From: an uncultured Alphaproteobacteria bacterium
GTDB lineage: Bacteria; Pseudomonadota; Alphaproteobacteria; Rhizobiales; Beijerinckiaceae
NCBI GenBank assembly: GCA_963759985.1
Contig: CAVXBI010000002.1
Span: 105,111-169,110 of the forward strand
Length of the DNA: 64,000 bases
Direction: 5' to 3'
Shown: piece by piece, positions 35,940-41,832 of the stretch
How positions within the stretch are numbered: the first letter of the stretch is position 1
Layout of the letters: every line of letters begins with the position of its first letter
Notes under the pieces: generated by a model
What the model saw: the letters and a program-made list of their open reading frames with translations, nothing else
Told to the model about the DNA's origin: nothing
The model's database searches: none
Program-made: the position numbers and the translations under genes

Positions 35940-36449
35940 TCACCTTTGTACCAGGCAGGACTGGGCGAAGGCGTACCAGATTTTCTCGGCCGCGCTGCCA
36001 TTGGCCTTCATATTCTGCCATTCAACCGCGCATTCGTGCATGCGGGCGCGCGTGTAGGGCGGAAGGGCCAGAAGTTTGCCGGGCGTCCAGGGCGGGGCTG
36101 ATGCCTCGCCCGAGACTTTTGTTTCCGGCGCTTGAGGCGGAGCCGTAGGGCTGGCGGCTTCGGGCGCGGCAGGAGCCGAAGGCCCGTTTGGCGTTTGAAA
36201 TGGGGCCGCAACGACGGGCACTTCAGGAACGACAAGAGTTGAGGGCCGGACTGGCGGCACGGGCGGTACCGCGCTCACGCCGGACTGAGCTTTTGAGAAA
36301 TCGTCTTGCGCTGAGACCCGAGCCACGCAAGAAACGTTGACTGCCAGGCCAACGAGCAAGGTCAACGCCGCGACGCGCGTTGCGCCCCGATCCGCTCCAC
36401 CGCAAGATTGACGCTCCGTAAGAGTGTTCTGGCGGGAAATCCTATCCAT
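35940..36449 (-). CDS. Hypothetical exported protein with Pro-rich linker and two-Cys C-terminal domain
   Basis: Hydrophobic signal-like segment ending VSA, P/A-rich middle, C..EW..MKA.G....W..F...C. Confidence 0.6.
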   Translation of the reverse strand: MDRISRQNTLTERQSCGGADRGATRVAALTLLVGLAVNVSCVARVSAQDDFSKAQSGVSAVPPVPPVRPSTLVVPEVPVVAAPFQTPNGPSAPAAPEAASPTAPPQAPETKVSGEASAPPWTPGKLLALPPYTRARMHECAVEWQNMKANGSAAEKIWYAFAQSCLVQR

Positions 36450-36579
36450 CCTTTGCCGCTGCGCTCTGCCAATCGACGTTCCGACTGCCTTGCCGACAAT
36501 GCCGAGAACTAAGCCCGCATCATGGCATGAGCCTTGTTCGACAGAGGATTCTCCCGCCGCCTGGCTCGCGGTCCTGGCT

Positions 36580-37509
36580 TCATTGCGGGGGAGGCGTGAT
36601 ACCCAGAACGGCGGCGACGCCAACGACGACGACGCCGAGGGCCAGTTCCAAGCCCACGCTCAGGCGAAGTTTGGCCAATTGCGCCATCTGCTTCGAACCG
36701 GCGGCGCCGAGCCGCGGCATCGCAACGAAGCGATTGAAATAAGCCAAGGCGAGCATCACGGCCACCAGGCCGAGCTTGGTGAGCAGCACCTCGCCATAGG
36801 CGCTATGGAAGAGCTTGGCGCCTGCAATATGAAATGCCGCATTGGCAGTTCCGCTGAGGATAATCAGCGTGACCGCGATCGTCCCCATCAAGGAATAACG
36901 CGACAATATATGAAGGCTCCCCGCGCGCGCCTCCTGCGGCTCGCGAGCCCGCTGCTCGACGAGCGCGAGAAGGAGCGGCGCAAGTCCGCCGACCCAAGCC
37001 GCCGCCGCCAGCATATGAAGGCTGTAACTCACGACCATGAAACCGCCCTCGAGGCTGACGCCGCCTTCCGCTGCATGTCCAAGCCAAGCCTGGCTGATCA
37101 GTAGCAAGCCGCCGATTGCCAGAAAGGCAAAGAATGAATTGCGGTTGCGATAGGGAAGGCAAGCGACCACGACGACGGCCGCAAAGAGCGCCAAGCGGAA
37201 GATGGCGACCGGGCCGAACGGAGTTTCGAAAAAGAAGAGACGGAGATTTTCCGGATCTGCGACGCCGCCGAACCCGTCGGTCATATTGGCCAGGATTCCG
37301 ATGAGCCAGGCGACGCCCGAGAGCGCCGTCAAGGCCGCGGCGATCCGAAGCAGGATCTTCGTGGCGCGGAATGCTTGGGGCAATTCGCCCGGACCGGCCG
37401 AGCTTGCCCCGCGCCCCATGTAGAACCAAAAGAAAGAAGACCCGAGGAGCACGAACTCCGAGCAGAAATGGATCCAACGTGCGACGACGAGGAATTGGAA
37501 TATGCTCAT
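36580..37509 (-). CDS. copD: Copper resistance inner-membrane protein CopD
   Basis: VARWIHF, AWLGHA, LHMLAAAAWVGGL, YGEVLLTKLGL, YFNRF. Confidence 0.93.
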   Translation of the reverse strand: MSIFQFLVVARWIHFCSEFVLLGSSFFWFYMGRGASSAGPGELPQAFRATKILLRIAAALTALSGVAWLIGILANMTDGFGGVADPENLRLFFFETPFGPVAIFRLALFAAVVVVACLPYRNRNSFFAFLAIGGLLLISQAWLGHAAEGGVSLEGGFMVVSYSLHMLAAAAWVGGLAPLLLALVEQRAREPQEARAGSLHILSRYSLMGTIAVTLIILSGTANAAFHIAGAKLFHSAYGEVLLTKLGLVAVMLALAYFNRFVAMPRLGAAGSKQMAQLAKLRLSVGLELALGVVVVGVAAVLGITPPPQ

Positions 37510-37572
37510 GATGGCTTGCGGCGCCTCATTCGGCCGTGGGAAGCTCGGCCGGACCGCGGCCGAGCTTCGATG

Positions 37573-37938
37573 TCAGGGCGCCATGGTGAATTGATAGGTG
37601 CCGGACGTGTGATGTGTGTCGACCGAGACCACGTGCCAGCTCACCTCATAGGTGCCGGGCTTCAGCGGATGGCCGAGCCGCACGATGAGTTCGTTGGGAG
37701 CGCCGAGCGCCGGTTTCGAGATCGGAACCGGGCCGCCGCCCTCAGCCGCGACATGCACGCCTGAGAACGCGAGCACGATATTTTCGGTGTAGGTGAGCTG
37801 CAGTTCAGCCGGCGAGCCGGTGACTGTGCCGCCCACTGCCGGAATGGCGTGATCCAGGAAAGCATGGGCGAAGGCAGGCGTCGCCGCGAGTGCGCAAGCG
37901 AAGGCTGCTGTGATGGAAAGTGTCAGAAGACGTTGCAT
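37573..37938 (-). CDS. copC: Periplasmic copper-binding protein CopC
   Basis: AFA|H mature N-terminal His, YEVSWHVVSVDTHHTSG. Confidence 0.93.
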   Translation of the reverse strand: MQRLLTLSITAAFACALAATPAFAHAFLDHAIPAVGGTVTGSPAELQLTYTENIVLAFSGVHVAAEGGGPVPISKPALGAPNELIVRLGHPLKPGTYEVSWHVVSVDTHHTSGTYQFTMAP

Positions 37939-37949
37939 GCTTGATCTCC

Positions 37950-38912
37950 TCAAAGGGGGCTGGCGCGGGTCGGGGGAGCCCCGAACAGCGGCTTGCCGAT
38001 CGAATCCGGCGCGATGTCGTCGAGGAAGAAGTCAATGATAGCCAAGGCGCCGACATGCCTGCCGCTCGCCTCGTTGATCGGCATCTGCGCCATGACGCCG
38101 ACTTCGAAATATTGTCCGATATAGTAGACCGAAGGGCCGACCACGCCGGTGGTCTCGTAGGGCGAGAACTCGCCTGGCATCGCGGGGCTAATGTTCGACA
38201 CGGGGGTGCTGAAAATGCCTTCGAAGGACGGAATGAGCTTGTTGAAGAATTCGGGCATCTGATGAATGAAAGAGTTCTCATAGAGCAGGCTGTATTGCAG
38301 CGTCGCACCGTAGGTCAGAATGGTGGGATTTAAGCTCTGGTCGGGATTGACGCCGACCGTCGGTATGGAGAAGTCCATCTCGCCGGTGACCGCGAAAGGA
38401 CGCAGCCAGTCCGCTGAAACATCACCGAGGCCCTTGCCGACGAAGACCTTCGACGTGACGGTCGTGAAGGGGGTCGAAGGCAAAGAAGCGCTTTGCGGAC
38501 TGCCGGTATTGCCCCAATCGACGCTCTCTGCCCCGGCGACGATGAATTCATGCTCGGGGTTTTGATAGAAGACGTACTTCGCCTCGGTGTCGATGTTCGA
38601 CCAGCCTGACGCTTCCGGGTTTCTTTGCCAGTCATATTCGTTGCCGATCGAAACCACCAAGTCGGGTGTGATCGTCTTGTCGAATTCCCACCCAAGGGAA
38701 TAGGAGATCGGCCCGGCGGTGCCATCAGGATTGGACGTCGGCAGGTATGTGAACATCGGAAGGACAAGTTCGTCGTTGACCCCCGGATCGTCGATGGTGA
38801 GCGTCGCCGGAAATACGCGGTTGCCGACGATCGTATGGGCGAACGCCGGACTGATGCCGACGAATATCGCGGCGGCTGCGCCTGCCGTGAGAGAAAAAGC
38901 TCGATGAGACAT
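37950..38912 (-). CDS. Uncharacterised exported/outer-membrane beta-rich protein of copper cassette
   Basis: Signal peptide AFA|HTIVGNRVFP, alternating beta-strand patterns; coupled to copC. Confidence 0.75.
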   Translation of the reverse strand: MSHRAFSLTAGAAAAIFVGISPAFAHTIVGNRVFPATLTIDDPGVNDELVLPMFTYLPTSNPDGTAGPISYSLGWEFDKTITPDLVVSIGNEYDWQRNPEASGWSNIDTEAKYVFYQNPEHEFIVAGAESVDWGNTGSPQSASLPSTPFTTVTSKVFVGKGLGDVSADWLRPFAVTGEMDFSIPTVGVNPDQSLNPTILTYGATLQYSLLYENSFIHQMPEFFNKLIPSFEGIFSTPVSNISPAMPGEFSPYETTGVVGPSVYYIGQYFEVGVMAQMPINEASGRHVGALAIIDFFLDDIAPDSIGKPLFGAPPTRASPL

Positions 38913-39071
38913 GGTTGGTCCTCAGCCTGAATCGTGGAGATTGTCGGCCACGAAATCGGCGGGTGCCGAGATCTACGCGCTGAAACGCGTGAACGCACCG
39001 GCCGATTGCGGCCGCGATACGAGCTTCGCTAAGGGCGAAGCCGATCCCTCTGCTCAGACTGAAGGAGGACC
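38913..39071 (-). promoter_or_regulatory. Structured leader with anti-SD/SD pairing (translational switch)
   Basis: GGUCCUC in the Gly-Pro-Pro codons (39065-39071) complements SD GAGGACC (38917-38923) and encloses five hairpins. Confidence 0.6.
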
Positions 39072-39422
39072 GCGCGGTGGCGCGCCGGCGGGAAAGCGGG
39101 CGGCATTGGGCGCAACGAAAGACGCGGGTGTCGCTTTCGACGAAATCGCGACAAAGCTTTGCGGGCTGCCGATCGAAGGCGCCAGGACCATTGCCGCCTG
39201 GCAATGGACCGCACAGAAAGGACAAGCATGATGGGCCGATGCGGGGCCTTGCCCCGGCGCGGACTGATCGCCGCTGCCTGACGTATGGCAGATCGGAAAG
39301 GCGCTTTGCGGGGAGTTTGCGAGCGCCTGATCGAGGGGCGATCCGGCCGTGCAGAGGCCGGCGGCAAAGAGCTGCACATAAAGGCCAAGAATTGCCAGCC
39401 AGGCGGAGATGTGCCGACGCAC
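39054..39422 (-). CDS. DUF2946 family protein (CruR/CutF-like arrest-peptide uORF)
   Basis: N-terminal hydrophobic segment, PICH, HHACPFCAVHC, C-terminal PPRGPP. Confidence 0.85.
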   Translation of the reverse strand: MRRHISAWLAILGLYVQLFAAGLCTAGSPLDQALANSPQSAFPICHTSGSGDQSAPGQGPASAHHACPFCAVHCQAAMVLAPSIGSPQSFVAISSKATPASFVAPNAARFPAGAPPRGPPSV

Positions 39423-39514
39423 ACCTGGCGCGCTAGAGCTGCCAGCGTTCAGAGTCCCCCTCCGCGCATGCGATCGAACACCCCCAGCTCCTTTCGCGCG
39501 CCCACCATATCAGC

Positions 39515-40303
39515 CTATTCCATCTTCACCAACAGGCCGCCTGCGAGAGCTGCGTGGAACAATCGATCAAAGATGACCACCGCGGCGAGAAGATATACGC
39601 CATCCAAAGCAAGGCCGTATCCCAGGCTTGTCCAAGACAATCCGCCTCCGGCCATGACTTGGCGCAGACCCTCGAAGGCATGGGTGGTCGGCAACGCGAG
39701 GGCCAAGGGCTGCAAGGAGCGAGGCAGAGCCGAAAGCGGATAGAAGACGCAGGAGAACGGCATGATCAATCCGGTGATGCTCCAGGTGAAGCTTTGGATC
39801 TTAGTCGTGTAGCGGACGATCAACCCGGTCACGAAAATTCCGACAGCCAGGCCGAAAATAATCAGGACCAGGATGAACGGGAGAAGCGCGGCCAAATAGG
39901 GAAAGAGGTCATAGGAGTAGAAGACGAGGGCGACGAGCGCCGCCACCGCTGTTCCGACAATCGCCTTCAAAAGGTTGATCGCCAGCAGGCCAACGAGATA
40001 TTCGCGCACGGTCAGTGGCGTCGAGAGCAGTCCCATCACGTTGTGCGACCAGACTTCCGTCAGGAAAGAGACAGCCAAGTCGCGCTGGAATGCGCGGAAC
40101 ATGCCCCAAAGAATCGCTCCTCCCAGGAGAAAGCTGATGAGCCCCGGCCGAAGATTGCCGTGACGCGCAAGGAACAGCGTGAGGAAACCCCAGACGATAA
40201 TATCCATCACCGGCCAATAAAGCGTGTCGGTGACGCGTTCGAGATTATGGCGTGCGTCGTAGACGTGCCGCTCGATGACCGCGGCAATTCTATTGAACCT
40301 CAT
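39515..40303 (-). CDS. ABC-2 type exporter permease
   Basis: Six hydrophobic segments, EVWSHN..LLSTPL, PFSCVFYP, PTTHAFEG. Confidence 0.88.
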   Translation of the reverse strand: MRFNRIAAVIERHVYDARHNLERVTDTLYWPVMDIIVWGFLTLFLARHGNLRPGLISFLLGGAILWGMFRAFQRDLAVSFLTEVWSHNVMGLLSTPLTVREYLVGLLAINLLKAIVGTAVAALVALVFYSYDLFPYLAALLPFILVLIIFGLAVGIFVTGLIVRYTTKIQSFTWSITGLIMPFSCVFYPLSALPRSLQPLALALPTTHAFEGLRQVMAGGGLSWTSLGYGLALDGVYLLAAVVIFDRLFHAALAGGLLVKME

Positions 40304-41039
40304 GCGGTTCTCTTTGGCTGGCGCGGATGAAAGCTTCGGAGAGGGCGGGCTCCTTGCGGTCTTCGCGCAGAATCGCGCGGGTGACCTCGGTCGGTCCGCC
40401 CGTGGCAATGACCCGGCCGCGGCGCAGGAAGATGACACGGCTGCACAGTTCTTCCACGTCCGCCATGTTGTGCGAGGTATAGAGGATCGCGGTGCCATGC
40501 CGTCTTTGCAATTGCAGGAGCGCTGCCTTTGCGAGCGTCGCCGCATAGGGGTCGAGTTCGCCCAGCGCCTCATCGAGCAGCAGCAGTTTCGGATCGTTCA
40601 AGAAGGCCTTGCAGAGGCGAACGCGCGCAATCTCGCCAAAAGACAGCTCCAACACCGGCTTTCTTTCGAGCTCTTCGATCCCCAAAAGGCGCAACAAGGC
40701 GCGAATCTTCGCTTTCCGGTCCCGAACGTCATAGAGACGCGCGTAGACCATCAGATTCTCGAAGACCGTGAGACGGTTCGGAAATCCGGCGTAGGGCGAC
40801 GCCATGTTGATCTTGCCGAGTATCTCTTCGCGGTGGCGCTGCAGGGATTTGCCGAACATGCGGATCGCCCCGCTTGTCGGCTCGATCAGACCCAACAACA
40901 TGTGAATCGTCGTGCTCTTGCCGGCTCCGTTTGGCCCGAGGAGACCGACAATTTCGCCTTCGCTCACGCCAAAAGAGACGTCGTCAACCACACGCGACGA
41001 CCCGAAATCCTTCGTCAAATGGTCGACTTCAAGAAACAT
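40290..41039 (-). CDS. ABC exporter ATP-binding protein
   Basis: GPNGAGKST Walker A, LSFGE signature variant, LLLLDE, TSH. Confidence 0.92.
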   Translation of the reverse strand: MFLEVDHLTKDFGSSRVVDDVSFGVSEGEIVGLLGPNGAGKSTTIHMLLGLIEPTSGAIRMFGKSLQRHREEILGKINMASPYAGFPNRLTVFENLMVYARLYDVRDRKAKIRALLRLLGIEELERKPVLELSFGEIARVRLCKAFLNDPKLLLLDEALGELDPYAATLAKAALLQLQRRHGTAILYTSHNMADVEELCSRVIFLRRGRVIATGGPTEVTRAILREDRKEPALSEAFIRASQREPHEVQ

Positions 41040-41121
41040 CGCGACAATCTCGCCGGCACGACCGGCTTTGCGCCCGTTAAGGCTCTAATGTATTCTACGC
41101 TATGTTCTTTCTCCGGCAATA

Positions 41122-41832
41122 GTGAATCCGATGCTGGTCCTCTGCAACGGGATGCCGCGTAGCGCCTCGACATGGTCGTACAATGTCGCCGTGGCTCTGC
41201 TGCGCCTTACTGGCGAGGAGATCCATGGCGGGTACGACGAGAATTTGCACCGCTTCCTGCGCACACTGCCGCCGTCGAGCCTGCATGCGGTCGTCAAATT
41301 GCATTCGCTCGATGGCGCCGGCGTCGGGCTCGCCCAAGTGCATGCGGCGAAAGTCATTTACACGTGGCGCGATTTGGCGGACGCGACCGCATCCTACATG
41401 GTGATGTTCGGCACCGACTTCGATCGCGTTCTCGCGATAATGTCGAGTTCGCTTGACCTCTATCAGCATCATCGACGCAACGGCGCGCTCATTCTCGGCT
41501 ATGAGGCAATCATCCAGCAACCGACGGAATTGGTTGCGGCGGTGGCGAACTATCTGAACCTCGACGCGTCTGAGGGCCGGATCGCCGAGATCGCAGAAGC
41601 CAACTCGCTCGCCAGAATGCGCGACAAGGTCAAAGAAATCGGTTCGCTTGATTATGGCGAACGCCTCATCCGCCACGAGCGCAGCTCTTACGATCCCGAG
41701 ACGCTTCTCAACATCGATCATATTCGCGACGGCGGCACCGGATACGGCGCCAGCCGGCTCAATCAAACTCAGCTCCGTCGTGTCGAGGAATTGCTGCGCG
41801 CCAAGGGGCCCTTGGGGATGACTGAGGGCTAG
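41122..41832 (+). CDS. Sulfotransferase-domain protein
   Basis: 5'-PSB loop GMPRSASTW, RDLAD..AS 3'-PB-like motif. Confidence 0.72.
   Translation: MNPMLVLCNGMPRSASTWSYNVAVALLRLTGEEIHGGYDENLHRFLRTLPPSSLHAVVKLHSLDGAGVGLAQVHAAKVIYTWRDLADATASYMVMFGTDFDRVLAIMSSSLDLYQHHRRNGALILGYEAIIQQPTELVAAVANYLNLDASEGRIAEIAEANSLARMRDKVKEIGSLDYGERLIRHERSSYDPETLLNIDHIRDGGTGYGASRLNQTQLRRVEELLRAKGPLGMTEG

Follow-up and report, generated by a model that had tools for sequence, protein, structure and literature searches.

In SecM-secA of Escherichia coli, MifM-yidC2, and VemP-secDF2, an arrest peptide is located near the end of a leader reading frame, and the arrested ribosome disrupts a helix between the leader's 3′ region and the next gene's Shine-Dalgarno (SD) sequence, allowing initiation there. 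A similar layout is predicted at a locus found in a 64,000-nucleotide (nt) stretch of DNA from an uncultured member of the Beijerinckiaceae (GenBank assembly GCA_963759985.1, contig CAVXBI010000002.1, positions 105,111 to 169,110; hereafter, the window, in whose own numbering all positions are given). On the minus strand of the window, an upstream open reading frame (uORF) for a DUF2946 leader peptide is followed by genes for a 320-amino-acid (aa) putative outer-membrane protein, CopC, and CopD. The leader has an arrest motif near its end and a predicted helix between its 3′ region and the downstream SD sequence. The signal for SecM, MifM, and VemP is the activity of the secretion machinery, whereas here it is presumably copper, sensed through the CXXC motif of the nascent chain, and the downstream genes do not encode arrest-releasing machinery. 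We consider it rather probable that this uORF and helix form a cis-acting translational switch heading the four-gene copper operon.

DUF2946 copper leaders are widespread, and the CruR-type family includes more than 2,000 members. The two leaders that have been studied differ in their mode of action. CruR (Bp2923) of Bordetella pertussis (PMC9426467, PMC12992588) works through Rho-dependent termination and is copper-off, whereas CutF of the Rhodobacter capsulatus cutFOG operon (PMC9973294, bioRxiv 10.1101/2025.02.05.636593) works by SD unmasking and is copper-on. The leader in the window resembles CruR in its DUF2946 domain, export-type N terminus, and CXXC motif, and in the 45 to 46 residues that separate this motif from an R(A/G)PP core (45 ± 2 in CruR; PMC9426467), located 2 to 3 residues before the stop codon. 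It is also the first gene of a copper operon, is followed by a long structured intergenic region, and, in the 3′ half of its reading frame, includes an unstructured, C-rich stretch. However, CruR is followed by a TonB-dependent transporter and a PepSY_TM protein, and its core is RAPP, encoded by frequent codons, whereas the window has RGPP with the rare codons GGU and CCU. Further, no complementarity between the uORF 3′ end and the SD sequence has been reported for cruR-bfrG, the output of which is Rho-dependent termination, whereas here the two are complementary and co-vary.

CutF, a distant leader of the DUF2946 type, has a Pro-rich stall site at its C terminus and acts in cis. An mRNA structure shielding the SD sequence of the next gene has been proposed to melt upon stalling; the locus in the window is similar in these respects. 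In contrast to the window leader, CutF contains CXXXC and PPP motifs, depends on elongation factor P (EF-P), is copper-on, and has a multicopper oxidase as its target. Its anti-SD sequence, CUUC, belongs to a local intergenic stem-loop, whereas here that part would be played by the coding 3′ end of the leader, in a helix that spans 51 to 187 nt. Ozturk et al. viewed stem-loop unfolding as possibly general but limited to short intergenic regions (PMC9973294).

The combination of an R-(A/G)-P-P motif near the C terminus, a small exported protein, and a downstream gene in the same orientation is shared with ApdA, ApdP, and the RGPP uORFs (PMC12992588, PMC10951233), among which copper-related downstream genes are already a noted class. 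The survey of RAPP and RGPP uORFs left open how the arrest is coupled to the downstream gene (PMC12992588), whereas the loci described here offer a specific, conserved RNA device that is predicted to provide such coupling. Judged from its sequence, the combination is that of a CruR-type sensor peptide joined to an SD-unmasking helix of the SecM/CutF type, here a long-range one. A literature search found no description of a CruR-type sensor that uses its own last codons and stop codon as the anti-SD strand of a long-range helix with a variable 51- to 187-nt insert, upstream of a putative outer-membrane protein, CopC, and CopD.

Pairing of the leader 3′ end with the downstream initiation region

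Scanning one genome per species with the 320-aa protein yielded 79 loci (40 to 87% protein identity), all from Beijerinckiaceae or bacteria closely related to them: Methylovirgula, Methylocapsa, Methylocella, Rhodoblastus, Beijerinckia, and one Bradyrhizobium. Among the cassette carriers are cultured organisms, namely, Methylocapsa acidiphila B2 (L033), Methylocapsa polymorpha RX1 (L041), Methylocella silvestris (L073), and Rhodoblastus sphagnicola (L037). The order uORF/320-aa gene/CopC/CopD is kept in at least 75 of the 79 loci, with CopC present in 77 and CopD in 75; in about 75, the 320-aa gene is immediately preceded by a uORF orthologue. Genes upstream of the uORF are not conserved, which, together with the conservation of the cassette, identifies the uORF as the head of the operon.

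The leader 3′ end, taken from the Arg codon of the arrest motif to 6 nt past the stop codon, was tested for duplex formation with positions −26 to +3 of the 320-aa gene. The mean duplex energy is −16.8 kcal/mol, compared to −11.0 kcal/mol for 70 control windows of the same length from the same uORF, and in 37 of 72 loci the 3′ end is the best of all uORF windows. Pairing between cognate strands is also stronger than between strands permuted among loci (−13.2 ± 0.36 kcal/mol; z = −10, 0 of 10,000 permutations), a result that only co-variation of both strands can give.

The same signal is seen in a fixed-register alignment of 38 loci, which matches the stop codon and 12 upstream bases with UCA and 11 downstream bases. 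Loci were admitted to this alignment if four pairs (UGA:UCA and one more) matched, so that those four columns are uninformative and the signal is carried by the other ten. In this register, 75.4% of the cells are paired, compared to 71.3 ± 0.9% after shuffling, and 49 cells are changed on both sides, compared to 24.8 ± 4.8. Compensatory changes are found in 11 of the 14 helix pairs, and sliding the partner strand by 1 to 3 columns lowers the pairing to 23 to 45%. All 17 diverse orthologous regions that were folded form a closing helix between the uORF tail and the initiation region (z from −1.5 to −5.2), and at least 4 base pairs are expected between the 13-nt SD window and the region running from the Gly codon to 3 nt past the stop codon in 58 of 77 loci. 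When the 12 closest orthologues were folded to a consensus, no more than 2 compensatory pairs emerged; these sequences diverge too little, and it was the wider set that provided the signal.

In five independent tests, the leader 3′ end and the downstream initiation region are thus shown to form a helix under selection. Covariation across homologous cassettes, named as a check in an earlier sequence-only reading of the window, is therefore observed.

The closing helix in the window

In the window, the sequence GGUCCUC (39071-39065), which comprises the Gly codon, the first Pro codon, and the first base of the second Pro codon, is perfectly complementary to GAGGACC (38923-38917), which holds the SD sequence of the 320-aa gene. 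The SD core GAGGA (38923-38919) ends 6 nt before the ATG at 38912. This pairing, proposed in the sequence-only reading, is also recovered, in both the minimum free energy (MFE) structure and the partition function, by folding of the segments 38895-39095 and 38905-39085. Five of its seven pairs have probabilities of 0.91 to 0.92, and the remaining two have 0.35 and 0.56. Next to it is an 8-bp helix between 39060-39053 and 38931-38924 that includes the UGA stop codon (39056-39054, within the AGUCUGAG strand). The SD nucleotides are paired with a probability above 0.9 and the AUG is free. The fold as a whole has a z score of −4.65, and none of 200 dinucleotide shuffles is as stable. An SD-shielding structure within reach of a stalled ribosome, as in CutF, is thus predicted here with a probability of about 0.9 (39071-39053 with 38931-38917). 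In an alternative register, GAGG is paired with the CUUC that spans the boundary of the Pro and Ser codons, contiguously with the stop-codon helix; this register is the consensus among the nearest relatives of the window locus.

The heptamer GGTCCTC itself occurs at background frequency (6 copies on both strands of the window, compared to 7.7 expected by chance), so that the probability of finding a perfect complement in the 160 nt that precede a given SD sequence is about 0.01. The pairing evidence from the window was obtained post hoc and is suggestive; the comparative evidence is decisive.

The helix closes an intergenic region of 141 nt. The sequence-only reading had described its interior as a domain of five small hairpins, each of which does fold when taken alone (−6.2 to −9.9 kcal/mol). 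In the MFE structure, two of these survive and three merge: the hairpin 39041-39023 (within 39046-39016) is retained, and a long stem of 39014-38995 with 38966-38945 encloses the hairpin 38990-38975. Among orthologues, the intergenic region ranges from 51 to 187 nt and its interior is conserved in neither sequence nor length, and the five hairpins were rejected as a conserved domain or ligand sensor. What is conserved is the sequence UCAGAYYGAGGA upstream of the start codon of the 320-aa gene. A pyrimidine motif, UCUCC/UCUCUC (38941-38936 on the minus strand in the window), is also kept in orthologues, roughly 10 nt away from the 3′-strand UCAG on its 5′ side. This motif may lengthen the closing helix by pairing with purine-rich bases that follow the uORF stop codon, or it may be an alternative partner of the SD sequence.

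A scan of positions 36000-41500 against Rfam at a permissive E value gave no relevant match, indicating that the element does not belong to a described RNA family. No sigma-70-like promoter and no intrinsic terminator were found in the intergenic region in a promoter and terminator scan. The coordinates of all features are listed in Table 1.

Table 1. Features of the leader, the intergenic region, and the downstream genes in the window
Feature	Positions	Strand	Basis
uORF, CruR-like DUF2946 leader peptide, 122 aa	39422-39054	minus	GTG start, UGA stop; list of open reading frames and Pfam
Hydrophobic N-terminal segment AWLAILGLYVQLFAAGL, 17 residues (aa 7-23), after RRH	39404-39354	minus	read from the sequence
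HHACPFCAVHC (aa 64-74), candidate copper-binding motif	39233-39201	minus	CXXC is CPFC, aa 67-70, 39224-39213
C/U-rich, G-poor stretch, candidate Rho-utilisation site	39131-39088	minus	C 0.43-0.48, compared to G 0.25
Arg-Gly-Pro-Pro codons CGC GGU CCU CCU, predicted arrest site	39074-39063	minus	sequence; arrest by analogy
Closing helix, 5′ strand: GGUCCUC (39071-39065) and AGUCUGAG (39060-39053)	39071-39053	minus	MFE structure, base-pair probabilities
Variable structured interior of the 141-nt intergenic region	39052-38932	minus	MFE structure
Closing helix, 3′ strand UUCAGGCUGAGGACC, contains SD GAGGA	38931-38917	minus	MFE structure, base-pair probabilities
320-aa secreted protein	38912-37950	minus	start ATG 38912; signal peptide ...AFA/HTIVG (cleavage at the slash)
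CopC, periplasmic copper-binding protein	37953-37573	minus	Pfam PF04234, E = 5e-19; NCBIfam copper_CopC
CopD, inner-membrane copper permease	37509-36580	minus	Pfam PF05425; NCBIfam copper_CopD, E = 1.9e-57

Codons facing the SD sequence and codon usage in the arrest core

The sequence-only reading assigned the anti-SD role to the RGPP codons. This assignment holds in the window but not in general: the Gly-Pro-Pro codons provide at least 3 bp to the SD sequence in 14 of 77 loci (including, besides the window, L003, L015, L016, L017, and L079), whereas the tail codons together with the stop codon do so in 54, e.g., AUC CUG AUC UGA with UCAGAUCGAGGA. The tail in the window is one codon shorter than usual (2 residues rather than 3), which accounts for the register on the Pro codons CCU CCU. 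It is safe to say that the anti-initiation strand is the whole leader 3′ end, which begins at the arrest codons and ends shortly beyond the stop codon, and that the codons that face the SD sequence vary.

The arrest core (39074-39063 in the window and the orthologous codons of L001 to L079) is under a real synonymous constraint. Its first Pro is encoded by CCU in 48 of 77 loci (62%; 24 of 48 after dereplication), against a background of 9 to 11%; at two other conserved prolines of the same leader, CCU is found in 6 to 9%. The Gly codon is GGU in 22 of 63 loci (35%, background 8%), and the Arg codon is CGC in 71 of 77 (92%, background 33%). This bias could reflect an alternative CCUCC register or an effect of tRNA or decoding on the arrest. 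It is not obviously family-wide, as frequent codons are said to encode the RAPP core of B. pertussis CruR (PMC9426467).

A small GC hairpin, GCGCG....CGCGC (39085-39072 on the minus strand), is formed by the Ala-Pro-Pro-Arg codons directly 5′ of the Gly codon. An equivalent CCGC...GCGG hairpin is predicted in many orthologues and may relate to the near-invariant CGC Arg codon.

The DUF2946 leader peptide

The uORF product matches Pfam family PF11162 (DUF2946) over residues 7 to 120 of 122, with a score of 30.5 bits (gathering cut-off, 23.7; E = 6.6e-7). Its hydrophobic segment, judged by inspection, may be an export signal or an N-in membrane anchor. Between CXXC and the Arg of the arrest motif lie 46 residues. 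The PPRGPP sequence (aa 115 to 120, with RGPP at 117 to 120) is followed by Ser-Val and the UGA codon, the uORF ending in ...APPRGPPSV; of the features listed in the sequence-only reading, HHACPFCAVHC, PPRGPP, and a putative export signal are all present in the sequence, but PPRGPP is not strictly terminal, in contrast to what was stated there. The CutF-type motifs are absent, CPFC taking the place of CXXXC and PPRGPPSV that of PPP.

These features are conserved. R[G/A]PP is present in about 75 of 79 orthologues, and the tail after it has a length of 3 residues in 68 of 73 loci (2 in the window); UGA is the stop codon in 68 of 73. CXXC is found in 73 of 77 orthologues, and its distance to the Arg in 73 orthologues is 44 to 48 residues, with 46 in 55 of these. 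In every CruR-type DUF2946 sequence test that was applied, the leader appeared as a member of this type, in agreement with the sequence-only reading.

Searches for the wider DUF2946 family returned mainly close relatives. No match was found on plasmids by tblastn, a profile search gave 11 proteins, all of the same cassette type, and an exhaustive search of representatives gave 48 clusters of a close family. A single metagenome scan with the most distant member found one locus, L080, of a different layout. On its contig (146-1774), a distant DUF2946-like open reading frame follows genes for Sco and PCuAC rather than heading an operon, and its ARGPP sequence is followed by 11 residues.

Predicted ribosome arrest and the proposed switch

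[quoted passage not shown] RGPP was the strongest arrest core tested (PMC12992588). By analogy, the P site in the window is predicted at 39068-39066 and the A site at 39065-39063. As a rule in toeprinting, the mRNA held by the ribosome includes about 15 nt on the 3′ side of the first P-site base. Counted from the predicted P site, this distance reaches 39053, exactly where the 5′ strand of the closing helix ends. This strand begins one codon ahead of the predicted P site and runs to +15 nt from the first P-site base, so that it would lie within the mRNA channel of a stalled ribosome; the earlier suggestion that a ribosome stalled at RGPP would cover the anti-SD strand agrees with this geometry.

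When the mRNA up to +15 is masked in the window, the predicted cost of opening positions −14 to +3 of the 320-aa gene falls from 13.9 to 7.4 kcal/mol. Averaged across 77 loci, masking lowers this cost from 8.5 to 5.3 kcal/mol (Wilcoxon p = 1e-11); in 40 of them, the decrease amounts to at least 3 kcal/mol.

The switch would work as follows. In the free mRNA, the Gly-Pro-Pro-Ser-Val codons and UGA would pair with the SD strand, closing the intergenic region and blocking initiation, a step based on folding and covariation. During translation of the leader, the ribosome would arrest at R-G-P-P with the P site occupied by one CCU codon and the A site by the next, as inferred from CruR, ApdA, and ApdP. 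Given the geometry, the arrested ribosome would hold the whole 5′ strand, and the SD strand would be freed for a second ribosome to initiate on the 320-aa gene. If the arrest is short or relieved, the ribosome would terminate 2 to 3 codons further on, the helix would re-form, and the operon would stay untranslated; the C-rich leader RNA, then exposed to Rho, could add polarity. The nascent CPFC, 46 residues before the arrest point, might set the duration of the arrest in response to copper, by analogy with the known leaders.

The least secure step is the polarity of this response. Arrest with the operon on at low copper, and release with the operon off upon copper binding, appears more likely, given the CruR-like motif and spacing, the link of CopCD to uptake, and the Bradyrhizobium japonicum operon headed by a cruR homologue, for which induction under copper starvation is stated (PMC9426467). 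The link of CopC/CopD modules is, for the most part, to uptake (PMC8424229, PMC11923076, PMC7558416).

Alternative explanations

Several observations weigh against the proposed translational switch. No pairing between the uORF end and the SD sequence is predicted in 16 of 77 loci, part of which may be explained by the start codons of some orthologues having been assigned by rule, and masking brings no gain in the opening cost in 15 of 77. In the masked state, the SD sequence is still partly paired, with a mean unpaired probability of 0.27 (0.10 in the window, where it enters a weaker local hairpin with codons 2 to 5 of the 320-aa gene). Thermodynamic folds of GC-rich RNA over-predict pairing. 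The CCU bias of the first Pro is not associated with a strong SD sequence (Fisher p = 0.33) and is equally strong without one; therefore, it cannot be counted in support of the Pro codons as the anti-SD sequence, and pairing with GAGG was rejected as a simple rule for it. Among public reads, the sequence was found in DNA metagenomes from soil and peat and in no RNA run. The copper polarity is drawn from analogy, and the only CruR-type member studied works via Rho-dependent termination (PMC9426467), for which a rut-like stretch is present here as well.

The mechanism of CruR might indeed operate here unchanged. In that case, RGPP arrest would shield the rut site or the polymerase from Rho, relief of the arrest by copper would lead to termination in the intergenic region, and the output would be transcriptional, with the long-range helix as an accessory, e.g., a pause or anti-translation element. 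All the sequence hallmarks of CruR are present, namely, CXXC, the 46-residue spacing, R(A/G)PP, and a long structured intergenic region (PMC9426467), and the intergenic region has no intrinsic terminator. Just 5′ of the arrest motif, as in cruR, the rut-like stretch is the least structured part of the uORF (unpaired probability, 0.46 to 0.51) and resembles the unstructured C-rich "bubble" mapped as the cruR rut site; in the final 90 nt of the uORF, the C and G contents across loci are 0.44 and 0.29. However, this explanation accounts neither for the co-variation of the uORF tail with the SD region nor for the presence of the SD sequence inside the helix in 58 of 77 loci, and we regard it as unlikely. 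The two mechanisms are compatible: a masked SD sequence would naturally bring Rho polarity, which, given the resemblance of the stretch to the cruR rut region, may reinforce the off state of the proposed switch. SD unmasking could also be combined with the opposite polarity, that of CutF, if copper on the exported nascent peptide prolonged the arrest and turned on an operon for copper tolerance. Such an arrangement would fit the RNA layout, with an arrest site and an SD-shielding helix as in cutF-cutO (PMC9973294), the N-terminal hydrophobic export-type segment of the uORF, and the first description of CopC and CopD in copper-resistance operons (PMC7558416). It is nevertheless distinctly unlikely: the leader has CXXC rather than CXXXC, RGPP rather than PPP, and the CruR-like spacing (PMC9426467), RAPP/RGPP arrest is refractory to EF-P (PMC12992588), in contrast to CutF, the cassette includes no oxidase or efflux gene of the CopA/CopB type, and CopD-type proteins are mostly tied to uptake (PMC8424229, PMC11923076).

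The helix might instead be an element of RNA processing or stability, such as an RNase III site at which the leader is split from the operon mRNA, with the DUF2946 product acting in trans as a periplasmic copper protein. A helix of about 15 bp that closes a structured intergenic region does resemble processing stems, and the uORF is conserved as a protein with a putative export signal. This seems highly improbable, though, because the 3′ strand always contains the SD sequence, the 5′ strand is always within about 15 to 20 nt of the arrest motif, and the spacing from this motif to the stop codon is nearly fixed; moreover, the action of CruR and of CutF is confined to cis, and neither product can be detected (PMC9426467, PMC9973294).

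Downstream genes

The 320-aa protein has no sequence match in Pfam, NCBIfam, or the Protein Data Bank, and 1375 relatives of it were found. Its AlphaFold2 model is all-β and of low confidence (pLDDT 57.7, pTM 0.55), for which reason a firm fold assignment was dropped. Foldseek searches with this model show weak matches, all of them to outer-membrane barrels (FapF, OmpG, and a COG4313 channel; E = 5e-3 to 3e-2, TM 0.3 to 0.4). The label of an outer-membrane protein given to it in the earlier reading is, accordingly, weakly supported, and the protein may represent an outer-membrane β-barrel of an unnamed family.

No multicopper oxidase (cutO) gene is found in the cassette, the genes after the uORF being those for the 320-aa protein, CopC, and CopD. 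The genes found thus agree with the view that the target is neither a TonB receptor nor a multicopper oxidase. It does not represent a wholly new target class, as CopC has been listed by Roy et al. among the neighbours of cruR homologues (PMC9426467).

After signal peptide cleavage, His26 of the 320-aa protein (38837-38835) would become N-terminal (AFA/HTIVGNRVFPATLTIDDPG), and H26-T27-I28-V29-G30 is invariant in 35 sequences. CopC has a similar AFA/HAFLDHA site, with His30 at 37866-37864. An N-terminal histidine-brace copper site is conceivable.

In Methylocella (L064, L066, L070, L074, and L077), an extra gene for a porin-like β-barrel protein of about 290 aa (...FTWTGLYVGGQIGYAWG...) is located between the uORF and the 320-aa gene. 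It shares the initiation region (UCAGAUCGAGGA..AUG) with the downstream 320-aa gene, and the two proteins have nearly identical signal peptides, MSYKAS(L/M)ACAGAFAAAA. The initiation region and signal peptide look like a module that has been duplicated or is portable. In one metagenome-assembled genome (L026, protein P0089), a 452-aa gene call joins the 320-aa protein to the CopC domain and could be either a fusion or a read-through annotation. A Pro/Ala-rich open reading frame of 227 aa downstream of CopD (35940-36623, minus strand) has no family match, is kept in 5 of 79 loci, and is probably outside the cassette.

Implications

If the proposed switch is confirmed, this cassette family gives a concrete and conserved answer to the question of how arrest is coupled to the downstream gene, left open in the RAPP/RGPP survey (PMC12992588). 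The coding 3′ end of the leader would serve as the anti-SD strand of a long-range helix, predicted to lie exactly within the footprint of the arrested ribosome. A CruR-type sensor could then be wired to a translational output of the SecM/CutF type, and long intergenic regions would be no bar to stall-driven unmasking, as the long-range helix gets round the limit to short intergenic regions assumed for CutF (PMC9973294).

A broader version of this idea is doubtful but worth stating. The nearly fixed tail of 2 to 3 codons in CruR-type leaders might exist because the tail and stop codon form an anti-initiation strand inside the arrested ribosome. SD unmasking would then be the primary output family-wide, including the operons for TonB-dependent transporters, with Rho as a secondary one, and the CGC-GGU-CCU codons might represent a second layer of tuning at the level of RNA or tRNA.

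The family of the 320-aa protein, widespread and unnamed, is flagged here as a likely copper-related outer-membrane component beside CopCD. It is found in methanotroph-related Beijerinckiaceae, in which the copper supply matters for methane oxidation.

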